Assembly: GCF_006345805.1 (NCBI RefSeq) | Contig: NW_021834483.1 | Location: 1 to 48,644 of the forward strand | DNA: 48,644 nt | Reading direction: 5' to 3' | Origin: Octopus sinensis | Lineage: Eukaryota | Shown here: positions 23,205 through 41,138 of the stretch, piece after piece | Position numbering within the stretch: the first letter of the stretch is position 1 | Layout of the letters: each line of letters opens with the position of its first letter | Position numbers and translations under genes: made by a program | The notes under the pieces: generated by a model | The model's input: only the letters and a program-made list of their open reading frames with translations | Told to the model about the DNA's origin: nothing | Databases searched by the model: none

Positions 23205-23552
23205 ATTGACAGGCAGACACACCGAGCCCTTATTCGCCCTGTTTGATGACACTTTGGACATACTGGCAAGTCAATTTCCGCAAAAAGGCGTGGAATGAGA
23301 GGAATTTGATTGGCGGTGACAGGCTTGACAGATATTCCGTGTCAAATGGATCAACGTAGTTACAGTTTATACAACAACCAGTCGAATGGAGACAATTTTT
23401 TGAGTTTTTGTAAATTCGAGCGTCGGTTTTCCAGAGAATGACGTCCGCAGGGTCTTCTGAGTTCTCTGGTACGGGAATTGGAGTCATACAAACCCCGGAA
23501 AGTGGCAGAAGAAAAAGAAGTTGGCCATTCCTAACAGTTAGGTGGACAGTTA
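23205..23552 (-). pseudogene. NPLOC4: NPL4 5' piece (end of UBL-like domain plus zinc finger 1)
   Basis: NGQLLFLLP..KTDARIY..CLHSTGCCINCNYVDPFDTEYL..PPIKFLSFHAFLRKLT. Removing intron 23239-23263 gives RKLTCQANKGSVCLPVN, after which homology stops. Confidence 0.88.
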
Positions 23553-24129
23553 CGTAAATCAATTTTTCATATAAAAAATTATTAGTTTAAATACATCAAA
23601 AATTGTTTTAGATGACTGAAAAACAAGATATCGCCAATATAGTGCTGATACAAAAAAATGCGGAAAAAAAGTCAAGTGGAAAAAAGGTCAAGTCGTCTTT
23701 GTTTACTTTATATCGTATCTTTATAGCAACTTTTTTCAATATTTGCCTTTTTTCTATTTTTGAAAAATTTTTTGTGAACAAACGTTCTTTAAAAACTCAA
23801 GTGCTATTGACAGTATGGAATCTAGAAAACTGAGTCGATATTTTAAAGAACAAGTTGAAAATAAAAAAAACCATCCTTCTGAGCTTTTCGAAGTCAAATA
23901 TAACAACATGTTTTTTGAACAATACCTTTGGTTATTTGAAAATATAACCGACACCTACAACCAAGGAGATGAAGGTGATACAAATCTTGGAGCAAGTGTC
24001 TGCTATAACAACTGTCTATTTCATATATGTCTATTTCGTTGAATTTGTTTTTTAAGAATTCTTTAATTAATTAAAGCAAAACTTTTATTTATATAATTTG
24101 CACATTATTTCAGTTTTTTAAAAAAATAT

Positions 24130-24470
24130 TAATTGTTCTTGTGGTGTACGGATGGTTGGCTTTTCGCAGTCTGAAAAGTCATTCCCATGAACGGATCCAC
24201 AGAAATCTTAACAAATGGAACTCAAGAAAGTGTGGACCTGACATTTCATGCTCATCCTGAAGCCTCGGGCAATTGCAATTACAATAACGGACCCCCACAG
24301 ACCCCTTCAACTTTGATTCTCATGAAAGCTATTTGTGAGTCGATCGAATCTTCCAACCCTGGAGAATGGATGTCATCTCTATTGATTTGTGTCAAAGACC
24401 GTCTTAAACGAGTCCCCAGAGGAAGTTGGCCGCTCATTGCTACTTATTTTAATTCCAAACTTGGAAAAAT
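24130..24470 (+). mobile_element. 5' fragment of a further CRE family
   Basis: LKRVPRGSWPLIA equals the CRE N-terminal xRIPKxAR..AA motif; possible frameshifted zinc finger upstream. Confidence 0.55.
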
Positions 24471-24619
24471 GAATTAAATATTTAATTGATATTGGATTAC
24501 CAGTCGAACAAAATTAAAACTATTTATATTTTTTTAAATAAAAATCAAATAAAAAAACACAAAAAGTATTATTATATGATAAAAATACATTTTTATTTTT
24601 GTCCCGTGATAAAATCTCA

Positions 24620-24785
24620 ACTTTATCCCAAAAGCTAACCTAACTTCAACCTTATCCATATCCCTAATTTTAACCATATCCCTAACCTTATCCCTAACCC
24701 TAACCTTTTCCCTATCCCTAACCTCAACCTATCCTTAACCCTTATTTTAACACAAGCCCCAACCCTAATCTATCTCCAACTTTAA
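24620..24785 (+). repeat. Degenerate (CCCTAA)n telomere-like array
   Basis: About 27 hexamer variants (CCCTAA, CCTTAT, CCTCAA, CCCTAT). Confidence 0.8.
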
Positions 24786-24879
24786 TCATAAAATAATGAT
24801 TCTTAGATTAGTACTATTAAAGAATCTTAGTAAGAATTATTTTTTATAAACAAAATCATTAATCAATTTTATAAAGTCT

Positions 24880-37677: not shown

Positions 37678-38059
37678 CAGTGGAACTTGTCTAAACCGGC
37701 CCCTGAAAATACCGGATCTCTCCGTATATACCGGCCGTTTTCTCCGGTCCCAATTTTTTACAGTATTTTCAATATAAATTTCACCTCTTTATTTCGGATT
37801 CTCTATATTCTGAAAACCGGCCGTTTTCTCCGGTCCCAATTTTTTACAGTATTTTCAATATAAATTTCACCTCTTTATTTCGGATTCTCTATATCTGAAA
37901 ACCGGCCGTAATGTCAAGTCCCAACGGCTTTTTTTACATTGTGCAAACCGGACAAAGAGGTATTAAAAATAACTGTCAAAACCTTGATAAGCCGGATCTC
38001 TCTATAAACCGGCCGATTTTCATGGTTCCGTCGGATTCCGGTTTAGACAAGTTCCACTG
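37678..38059. mobile_element. 382-bp pogo-type MITE with an internal 86-bp tandem duplication
   Basis: Perfect TIR CAGTGGAACTTGTCTAAACCGG; TA TSD. Confidence 0.92.
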
Positions 38060-38270
38060 TACTTAATAATCAGAAATTGTCTCATTAACAACTCTCTACT
38101 TACTTGGGCAAAGTAGGATTGCCAGTATGCTCACAGACTGGTACAAATGCTCTAAGAATAGAAGAGTCCCATAAATGTCGTCCACATAAAGTTCCGCTGC
38201 TTACTAGGAAACACGTCCACGGTTAAAATATGCTAAAAAAATTTACCTCAAGACGACGACTTTCTATATA

Positions 38271-39080
38271 CAATTTACCCGCCATTTCTATAACTCGCCA
38301 CTTTTTTTGGGAAAAATGCCTTTTTTACAAAGGAAATTCTCTTACTCGCCACTTTTTAGTACTAAAAAATGACAATTTATTATTTAAAAAATAATTTTTC
38401 AAATATTGAATGCTATAAAAAAGAAAGCTGAAAGATGAAGTCTCATTTTCTTATCTTGCCTGGAAAAATGTGTCGGTGGATACAATATCAAAATGTTTTC
38501 AGCACGCCAAATGGGAAAAAAGCATTGAAGAACCTATTAAAGGAGACCATAAAATAAAAAATTTCGAACAAATTATAGATAAATTAATGATTTCAGATCT
38601 CATAAAAGAAGAGGAGTTTATAGACTTTACGCACTCTGAAAATGACGAACTTCATGATTTTCTACAAAACAATAACGATAAAAATGACAATTTAAACAGT
38701 TCAATTATTGAAGATTGTGAAAGAAACAAATGTATTACACATCTAGACGCGATAAAAAGTGTTTCGGACCTCAAAAATATTTTTCACATGATGATCATTT
38801 TAATGTGAATATGCTTGAAAGTTTAATAAACATGAAAAAAAATATGTTGAAAAGATCAGTCAAAAAACTATCAATGATTACTTTACTTAAAATCTTCGTT
38901 TTTTAATAAATGTTTCAGATATTTATTTAAATGTTTAGAATCATTCAAATAGGTAGTTAAAAATTATAGACAATTTTTATGATAGAAGATTCGGATATTG
39001 ATTATTTATCTTACTCGCCAAATTCTCGCCAATTTTGACTTGGTCCCAAAAATGGCGAGCAATAGAGAGAATGAAGACTG
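38271..39080 (+). mobile_element. Internally deleted pogo/Tigger element
   Basis: TA flanks, diverged TIRs, CTCGCCA subterminal motifs, AWKNVSVDTISKCF transposase C-terminus. Confidence 0.75.
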
Positions 39081-39665
39081 TAATATTATTTGGTCAGATG
39101 AGACAAAGATAGAAATTTTTGGAGAGAATTATACAAGCTACGTGTGGCGTAAATCAAAAGATGAATATCGCCCAAAAATACCACACCAACAGTTAAACAT
39201 GGCAGTATTATATATGGGGTGTTTTTCTTCTCGGGAAGCTGAGAAAGTTTATGTAATAGACGGAATATTGAATGGTTCTATATAGTGTGATATTAAAAAA
39301 ATATTTTTTCGTCAATTAAGAAATGTGGTATTGCGGGGAATTGGAAATTTAAACAGGACAATAATCCGAAGCATAGTGCACAAAAGCTCAAGAAATGGCT
39401 AGAGGAACATTTATTTATTACCCTTGAATGGCAAAGTCAGTCCCCAGATCTAAATCCGATTGAAAATCTTTGGAAAGAATTAAAAGTCTTTTTTTATGGT
39501 CACATAATTACATAATCCAAATAATATCACGGAATTACAATTAACTTAAATATAAACAGTTGTTATAAAAAACACAATTTTATTAAAAATAAACAAAAAG
39601 ACTAAGACTAATTTGACCCATTGCACTCGCGTTAAATTGGCGCATCAAAATAAATAAATTGATAA

Positions 39666-41138
39666 CTAATTAAAAGATGAAAGTAAATAAATAGAATCAA
39701 TGGAGCGGAAATTCACATATTTCACAACGAGATGATCCCCCTGCATTAATAAACCTACATTTCGAACAACCAATCTCCTCATCAGAATGCACTGAAATGA
39801 CTCCCTCAACCAGAGTCAATAGCAACTCCCACAAGCTCTATCAACGACCTCATTTCTATTCCGTGACGGATCCTCGACAACAAATCACGATTCCCGTCCC
39901 TCACAGCCACCAACAAATCCCCAATAAAAGTCTAAATATCAAAACGGCATAATTTCACATCAAGTGAGGAAAACTCAGAACTAGTGAGAAAAACAAGCAC
40001 GTGAAAGTCTCCTATGCACTCCAAAAACGAATCGTACCCAAACTGCTGCCAATACTTCGCAAAACCCAACAAATTCTAAAAAATAGCTAAAAAGAATAAA
40101 ACTTGTGCTTCAAAATGGTCAGCTCGGTTTTCAATCGCATAAAATGTTTTAGAAACATCAAGAGGGAGTGAATAGACATTGGTCTTGGGAGTTCCCACTC
40201 ACAACTCAGTAATGAGGAACTCGTTGGGTACTGGTCTGGTCAGTTGCTTTACATTATTGCCGTAACAGTCAGTTTTCTAGACATTTCTACCCCAAGTAAC
40301 CGACCACATAAAATACGTCAGGGACATACTGATTGTCAGTTGATTCCTTTACGTATGACATCCCAGAACACCCGATAGTGGGCACAAGCAGTCCTTCCTT
40401 CACCATACACTGCACAGAAGCCTGGTATGCCTCGAGATGGATTTGCATGTCTTGTCCGCCTGCAAGTATTTCTATTAGAACAACCAGTGGCCACGACTGT
40501 CACAAATTTGGACCCATAATAACCCCCGTCGGCCAATTTGCACGGATTCGGATACTTGTTCTGATGATAGGCCGCAGTTATACATTCCTGCGAGCTCAAA
40601 TAATACGATTTCTAGCAATATAAACACTCCAAACAACATCATTCCCCCGAAAGTGCTTTACAGTCCCAGCACTCGAATCTGCTGACACCAAATCCATAAA
40701 AATCCACCCAACAACGACCAATCCCAACTGGGCGGATATCCACCGAATATTCTCTTCCCGAGAATCCTCCAACAACTCAATTCCATCACGACTGGACACC
40801 TAACCCTCCAAAAATACAACAATCACTTGAGGAGGCTCATAAATGGCCACTACGACTGCTTTAATCCCCAAAGGAAATTGTTCCATCACTTCATACCTCC
40901 CAAACAGGATTCCAGCCCTTCGATTTCCAGTTTTCCCCCCAAAAATGGAGAAACCTCTGAACCATTGTATCATTTTCGAAAGAAACAAACTCCACATGTC
41001 TATACTCCTTCAAAACACACATTTCATGTAAAAATAAACCTGTCGATTCAACGTGATGGCCCCAGGCTGACATTGAGAACAGATCCCGGCCGGATATGGC
41101 TTGTGGAGGGGACAGGACTGGTCAATCTTACATTTCGT
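39666..41138 (-). pseudogene. NPLOC4: NPL4 3' piece (zinc finger 2, MPN, CTD, NZF), multi-exon
   Basis: [110 protein letters not shown]. About eight mini-introns, one homopolymer frameshift (40935-40940) and one in-frame TGA (40199-40201). Confidence 0.93.

Follow-up and report, generated by a model that had tools for sequence, protein, structure and literature searches.

Contig NW_021834483.1 of the Octopus sinensis genome assembly (GCF_006345805.1, designated G000 here; the contig is designated C10954) was analyzed over its entire length of 48,644 nucleotides (nt), which we refer to as the window. It carries the housekeeping gene NPL4 as two halves that lie on one strand in swapped order. 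This copy is almost certainly dead as well as permuted, and the swapped halves likely reflect an ordinary one-off rearrangement via a DNA circle rather than a gene that is unscrambled by the cell. By analogy with published cases, the window copy would be a further instance of an already known process, duplication through a circular intermediate. The original prediction for this DNA had a different headline, namely, a scrambled germline gene in need of rearrangement. That reading gives way before a diverged contiguous copy, a stop and a frameshift in the halves, the missing codons 1-63, and the lack of a pointer beyond one base. Of the fall-back readings offered with it, a dying copy is confirmed by the stop, the frameshift, and the missing codons, and a reintegrated circle has become the best-supported route, held with slightly better than even confidence, given the B-A order, the one-base overlap, and the short microhomologies.

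Both halves are on the minus strand, and the upstream part of the gene lies downstream of the remainder. This permuted order, which had been read from the letters, holds up in alignment to a contiguous NPL4 on contig C12762 and in Pfam matches (zf-NPL4 at 23233-23586; PF05021 at 40305-40919). Approximately 16 kilobases (kb) separate the two pieces:

23207 to 23555, minus strand: NPL4 5' piece, with the last 2 nt of exon 3, intron 3, exon 4, intron 4, and the first 32 nt of exon 5 (codons 64-164); start codon absent.
39697 to 41138, minus strand: NPL4 3' piece, from the remainder of exon 5 through the stop codon (codons 164-574), interrupted by 8 tiny introns; aligned to C12762:162328-163781.

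The 5' piece aligns to C12762:161980-162328 at 93.7%; for the 3' piece and its flank (39114-41138), the alignment is to C12762:162328-164356, at 94.0% with gaps. The base C12762:162328 is present in both halves, giving a one-base overlap; the computed chance that two independent breaks would coincide within one base is 0.0006-0.002. The pieces had been expected to fit within about two codons, and the fit proved even tighter. The 14-residue register read across the join at that time did not stand: the contiguous gene reads KGSVCLPVTKCKI across the break, i.e., 13 residues, and because the additional N was read from the foreign flank, the register is accidental. Likewise, the end of the 3' piece had been placed at 39666, and the reading frame actually stops at 39697. 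The absence of a long pointer repeat at the break was correctly noted, with only one shared base present. The break lies 32 nt into the 130-nt exon 5, and no GT or AG is found at the joints, where the flanks begin with ATG and end with TTA. Since the break is inside an exon and neither joint carries a splice signal, trans-splicing cannot join the halves; a trans-spliced split gene was ruled out on the ground that the halves do not end at splice sites.

The contiguous NPL4 on C12762 was modeled by hand as 574 codons with 12 GT-AG introns of 23-33 nt (mean, 27 nt). Whether a contiguous NPL4 elsewhere in the assembly is identical to the halves was a check set beforehand, and the copy found is only 94-96% identical to them. 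Differing at 4-6% of sites, it is a diverged gene and not the rearranged product of the window halves, and this contiguous gene likely supplies NPL4. Over 508 codons, the proportions of synonymous and nonsynonymous differences between the two copies (pS and pN) are 0.068 and 0.022, respectively, and 12 of 259 intron sites differ. The 574-codon model skips one extra base at C12762:162424, which is missing from three window-type copies and from sequencing run X3 (9.02 of 9.02) and is probably a consensus error. In the assembly search, the 5' piece matched at at least 90% only on C10954 itself, C12637, and C12762.

The layout of the window is real and not an assembly error, because both joints also occur in short-read contigs and in sister contigs. 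Contig C12637 repeats window positions 21820-38912 at 98.5-99.8%, with two 1.6-kb insertions, and carries the 5' joint and the whole middle (99.0-99.8% over 21820-38254). Contig C10756 repeats most of 36247-48644 and carries the 3' joint, without the hAT element at 41197-43422, and C12461 holds 40159-41197 with an identical 3' joint. Contigs from short-read run X1 contain both joints, at depths of 166 and about 94, and when X1 is compared with the intact locus, two loose ends appear at the break (162328), which correspond to the two flanks of the window. As X1 has no library on record and is possibly the source sample, its support of the layout is a technical check only. This uncertainty, together with the indel noise and the several near-identical contigs found in the passenger genome described below, is what could be said for an assembly or amplification artifact caused by chimeric reads; but the recurrence of the 5' joint and middle on C12637 and of the 3' joint on C10756 and C12461, the presence of both joints in X1 contigs, and the clean transposon insertions by which the contigs differ, like real haplotypes, make such an artifact extremely improbable. 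C10756 and C12637 might represent one locus differing by a 64-kb deletion: the two have in common a low-copy stretch of 728 base pairs (bp) found on 3 contigs in G000, but its third copy, on C2502, is equally close to C12637 (97-98%) and continues like C12637.

Three lesions distinguish the window copy from the contiguous gene:

40199 to 40201, minus strand: premature TGA at codon 432, where the contiguous copy has GGA; common to the window, C10756, and C12461.
40935 to 40940 (G run), minus strand: +1 base frameshift near codons 219-220; not in the C10756 consensus, a different base in C12461, and an inserted G at depth 115.2 of 336.3 in X1.
40405 to 40406, minus strand: 6-bp in-frame deletion of two residues of the MALVK stretch; also in C10756 and C12461, and in X1 at 148.8 of 148.8.

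The original prediction had listed the TGA; the frameshift and the deletion add to it. All three lesions appear in X1 short-read contigs, one of which (682 nt) equals window positions 39807-40488 with 0 differences, TGA included. In addition, codons 1-63 are missing. A missing start had been expected at about 70 codons, from which a third piece was deduced; the start is indeed absent, whereas no such piece emerged, as codons 1-63 were found nowhere beyond the intact locus and two old copies at 77% among 231 records (including the window, all of C12637, C10756, and C12461:1-200000; the search was not genome-wide). The window copy would make no protein.

None of the runs is recorded as RNA, and no RNA source was listed for window positions 37300-41190, a result that says nothing about expression. 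Runs X3 and X4 are taken as RNA of a related population with alleles of its own, because they contain exon-to-exon joints and exon-sized contigs. Run X2 gave nothing on the intact locus, and X1 gave no coverage of its first 63 codons; as records are filtered in this comparison, neither absence was used. At 16 listed diagnostic sites that they cover (37 further rows stand outside this list), the X3 and X4 contigs are intact-type at 12, window-type at 3, and mixed at 1. With these runs as an outgroup, a residue change or stop occurs in 6 of the 7 codons changed on the window branch versus 1 of 4 on the C12762 branch, again among the listed rows. At the TGA site, the stop base T was seen in X4 at 0 of depth 250.4. 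One X4 contig spans the break (5301-5360), with only 28 letters on one side, below the 31-letter bar. Because X3 and X4 come from another sample, silence of the window copy cannot be deduced from them.

Past the stop codon, the window tracks the intact locus for another 2.4 kb, to C12762:166796, and the copied segment comprises C12762:161980-166796 (4.8 kb). The remainder of the rearranged block and its surroundings are as follows:

37246 to 39696, minus strand: copied 3' flank, including most of the terminal-inverted-repeat element W; 80-94% to C12762 up to 166796.
23156 to 23206, minus strand: foreign flank b2, adjoining the end of the 5' piece; a 57-bp remnant and then a repeat, 98% to C9585:71825-71881; a loose end in X1.
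41139 to 41197, minus strand: foreign flank a1, a truncated repeat that abuts the start of the 3' piece; copies on C12459, C9061, and C1794 match it at 85-92%.
41197 to 43422, plus strand: hAT transposon, a later insertion in the a1 flank, with hAT dimerization and Spin-doc zinc-finger domains; the site is empty in C10756 and C12461.
23547 to 24117, plus strand: R2, the right-hand part of the receiving repeated block, into direct repeat Y (23738-24117); 77-85% to C10066:7000-7344 and 3357-3709.
24118 to 36246, no strand assigned: repeat nest of 12 kb, with summed X1 depth of 138-15481 per bin; 22% matches other loci examined; the same in C12637 except for a 1.6-kb insertion.
36247 to 37246, plus strand: P and R1, which form the left-hand side of the receiving block and meet the NPL4 segment at its far end; 90-96% to C10066:4279-5483; this joint is also on C12637 and C10756.

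Short microhomologies mark the joints: 3 nt (TCA) at b2, 2 nt (AC) at a1, and, as read by eye, about 5 nt at one capture joint and 1 nt at the other. The a1 repeat copies on C12459, C9061, and C1794 run on past the joint, and the same joint as in the window is present on C10756, on C12461, and in X1. Element W, found in 10 of 10 other loci examined, is cut in the window about 150 bp before its far end; transposition of the segment by the end of W was rejected, since the cut falls inside the element.

The receiving block is permuted along with the gene. On C10066 and C8598, which are 99.2% alike, a related block has R1 and then R2, 1517 bp apart, and this order is kept on C10118 and C13333; in the window, the order around the ends of the NPL4 segment is R2 (23547-23831) and then R1 (36530-37246). 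The NPL4 segment appears to have replaced the 1.5-kb middle of the block. Direct repeat Y stands on each side of the block on C10066, where 7000-7344 and 3357-3709 have an 82-bp direct repeat in common, and the window switches from right-hand to left-hand context in or after Y. The second joint, which links the right end of the block to its left end, is held or bordered by the repeat nest, and a small inverted-repeat element abuts position 36247. The donor ends 161980 and 166796 are linked via R2-Y-nest-P-R1 (13.7 kb) and not directly. We also considered the stretch between the joints as a single insertion with ends that meet nearby; this was rejected, as C12461:1-105295 and C10756:9065-45465 overlap with the left of the window and of C12637 only in scattered repeats.

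From these homologies, we infer the following route. A 4.8-kb segment of the NPL4 locus that starts at the end of exon 3 and stops inside W would have been copied into the repeated block, replacing 1.5 kb; because the segment began at the end of exon 3, the copy would have been without codons 1-63 from the start. The right end of the block would have been joined to its left end, probably via recombination between the direct repeats Y, closing a circle of ∼7 kb. One break at codon 164 would then have opened this circle, with one NPL4 base kept on both sides and both ends rejoined to foreign DNA through the microhomologies of 2-3 nt seen at the joints. Transposons accumulated, and the copy acquired its stop, frameshift, and deletion, as its sequence shows. 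The observed order follows from one nearly lossless break in NPL4 and one joint of the right end of the block to the left, and a circle opened at a single point would give that order in one passage. That a free DNA circle carried the copied segment is, in our judgment, narrowly probable.

Several observations weigh against this account. C10756 has the 3' joint but no 5' piece, and its left side holds pieces of the block in unrearranged form, so that a circle-first order needs an additional exchange. Nor is the crossover in Y clean: the window sequence tracks Y2, Y1, and then Y2 again at 24042-24072, and the second joint may therefore lie anywhere within 23738-36247. An empty target site joining both flanks gave 0 exact pattern matches in G000, an assembly that is possibly incomplete, and both flanks are truncated pieces of other sequence. 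In the search for the source of flank b2, a small repeat took up the 40 candidates scored, and that source is therefore not called single-copy. Assembly searches with the NPL4 pieces did not find an unpermuted donor copy with the captured segment. The pairwise pN/pS of 0.33 is below expectation for a copy that was neutral since the split, which implies that some of the divergence built up while selection was acting. Finally, the consensus of C12762 does have the extra base at 162424, where X1 yielded no intact-type contig.

The same dead copy could have arisen without a free circle, through a reciprocal non-homologous exchange at codon 164 (i.e., a translocation, a sister-chromatid exchange, or a very large insertion) and a later unequal crossover in or near Y that united the products in swapped order. 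We regard this chromosomal route as credible but rather doubtful. C10756 resembles its intermediate, with the 3' piece and joint in the old left context (C10066:2821-3296, 3864-4438, and 4895-5483), C12461 extends 105 kb from the same joint without a 5' piece, and C10756 is reached with one event fewer. The other intermediate, in which the 5' joint would lead into the old right flank, did not turn up, however, among the three contigs that match the 5' piece at at least 90% (C10954, C12637, and C12762), and with both sites on a single chromosome and in like orientation, a circle would already be released by the first exchange. A tandem duplication of the entire block, trimmed by two independent deletions ending at the same base, would also produce a permuted order, since the inner part of any tandem pair is permuted, and the region is rich in insertions and deletions; the chance given above for independent ends within one base (0.0006-0.002) renders it very improbable. 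Both the circle and the chromosomal two-step route amount to one-time accidents affecting a dead copy.

A ciliate-like scrambled germline gene, with halves reordered during development into a working NPL4, has in its favor that the halves are exactly complementary, that chromatin elimination and circular DNA have been reported for dicyemid somatic cells (PMC6543705), and that scrambled loci of ciliates are associated with duplication and decay (PMC9797194). Nevertheless, the contiguous copy differs from the halves at 4-6% of sites, and a joined product would have a frameshift and a stop and would be without codons 1-63. The single shared base is below the pointer repeats of ciliates, which are canonically 2-20 bp and longer when scrambled (PMC9797194). 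The window-allele X1 contigs exit the gene at 162328 into both flanks, and the spliced X3 and X4 contigs are mostly of the intact type. On this evidence, we consider developmental unscrambling of the window copy extremely improbable. The locus does resemble the scrambled genes reported for Oxytricha, Tetmemena, and Euplotes woodruffi (PMC9797194) in its complementary out-of-order pieces, its repeat-rich region, and its local history of duplication and decay. In contrast to those genes, it has no pointer, its pieces are damaged and do not make up a full set, and the gene found contiguous on C12762 has diverged from them; i.e., pointers, a complete open gene, and a contiguous form identical to the pieces, the three ciliate marks tested, are all absent. 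Among the titles and abstract openings of the literature searched, none was found to report this locus, scrambled genes in dicyemids, or a permuted NPL4 pseudogene.

The likeness to circle-mediated duplication is closer. In the literature, duplication through circular DNA is recognized by a same-strand change of order from A-B to B-A together with short microhomologies (PMC7450558, PMC7188851), with known cases in human cSDPs (PMC7450558), in duplications mediated by eccDNA (PMC7188851), and in cattle KIT, tilapia vasa, and yeast as cited in PMC7450558. Of five tested marks of this process, the window copy shows three, namely, the same-strand B-A order, a single opening point, and joints with microhomology. 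Like the cases reported there, it has a same-strand block flip relative to the donor, with the inner point of the donor at both outer ends, as well as 1-5 nt of microhomology at the joints and no new working gene. Unlike them, its donor segment is 4.8 kb rather than 22-3918 kb, its donor ends are linked via pieces of another block and a 12-kb repeat nest, its acceptor site was not recovered, and a possible intermediate exists on a sister contig.

Gene fragments are also captured by transposons, as with Pack-MULE and Helitron elements. The window copy is similar to such captures in being an intron-bearing gene fragment within repeated DNA, in a genome that holds other stray NPL4 and Las1-like pieces. 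It differs in that the segment ends (at exon 3 and inside W) are not element termini, and capture alone does not permute.

Two kinds of 18S rRNA gene occur in the assembly, one of ∼2.6 kb and 64% GC on large scaffolds and one of 1667 nt and 45% GC on C1618, the flanks of which have repeats in common with C12762 (100% over 173 bp) and C12637. A long, GC-rich 18S is typical of cephalopods, and a long 18S is also typical of myxozoans. A second NPL4 is found at C10113:37199-48207, with introns of 0.6-4.3 kb and 36-61% identity by exon to the tiny-intron gene, and is likely that of the host. Given the two 18S kinds and the second NPL4 with kilobase introns, the window belongs to a passenger animal within the host assembly, and this animal is likely a dicyemid. 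Introns mostly under 30 nt, a dicyemid trait, were found in one modeled gene (the 12 NPL4 introns of 23-33 nt). For comparison, the median intron of Dicyema sp. is 27 bp (PMC6543705), and among animals introns this short have been reported for dicyemids and myxobolid myxozoans (PMC13644364). The Dicyema genome is reported to have 49% repeats and 36.7% GC (PMC6736024), and the 1667-nt 18S is compatible with a dicyemid 18S amplicon of 1,561 bp (PMC7710466). Dicyemids had already been guessed at in the original prediction; intron sizes and the short 18S agree with that guess, whereas the protein searches lend it nothing, as no named dicyemid was among the matches listed for NPL4 (21 matches at 40-60%) or for beta-tubulin (animal matches up to 95%). 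The extrachromosomal circles reported for dicyemids (PMC6543705) offer a partial parallel: they likely concern the same animal group and are abundant there, but the long circles have a median of 702 bp with only mitochondrial domains reported, whereas the circle proposed here would be ∼7 kb, nuclear, and an old germline event.

The passenger genome is repeat-rich, with tiny introns and contigs of up to 1.29 Mb (megabases) within the 2.7-Gb (gigabase) host assembly (C1618, C12762, C1794, C2502, and others). Older NPL4 fragments, several with stops, occur at 68-77% DNA identity on C12222, C8597, C12760, C8901 (two places), and C9729, so that stray gene pieces are common in it; a 63-bp NPL4 fragment at 95% is found on C8699. 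A putatively Las1-like gene piece is present in three copies about 2% apart (C10756:28-755, C12637:1969-3727, and C2502:36911-37659), two of them on contigs with the NPL4 block. An open frame (C10066:5400-6000, minus strand), presumably akin to a receptor L-domain/leucine-rich protein, lies in the stretch of the receiving block that gave way to NPL4; the block occurs in multiple copies and may represent an expanded gene family. The hAT transposon sits at an identical position of the same host repeat in four loci (window 41197-43422, C9061:196361, C1794:334028, and C12459:329531), and it possibly has a target preference. Elsewhere in the window are a cyclin gene at 10454-11382 on the minus strand (Cyclin_N, E 4.9e-30; Cyclin_C, weak), with short breaks resembling tiny introns; reverse transcriptase and integrase fragments of retroelements (15178-16500, 17181-17585, and 19283-19618); a degenerate TAACCC-like (telomere-like) array within a repeat at 24639-24760, also on C9585, C9300, and C12469; and a 2.6-kb element at 19883-22512 with terminal inverted repeats of ∼630 bp that are 98-99% complementary. 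The interior of this element is inverted on C12637, and collinearity between the window and C12637 ends to its left.

The window thus offers a clean, base-resolved permuted duplication in a little-studied parasitic animal, and it cautions that complementary gene pieces found out of order need not imply programmed unscrambling. A bolder reading, which we think unlikely, is that the developmental circles of dicyemids sometimes re-enter the germline, with this locus as a first footprint and permuted fragments recurring genome-wide; it draws on a single locus. Passenger contigs of up to 1.3 Mb within the host assembly make a genome-wide survey feasible. If the reading were true, permuted fragments would be raw material for ciliate-like scrambling in an animal, and if such fragments proved frequent in the passenger genome, the developmental DNA circles of dicyemids would be tied to heritable genome change.

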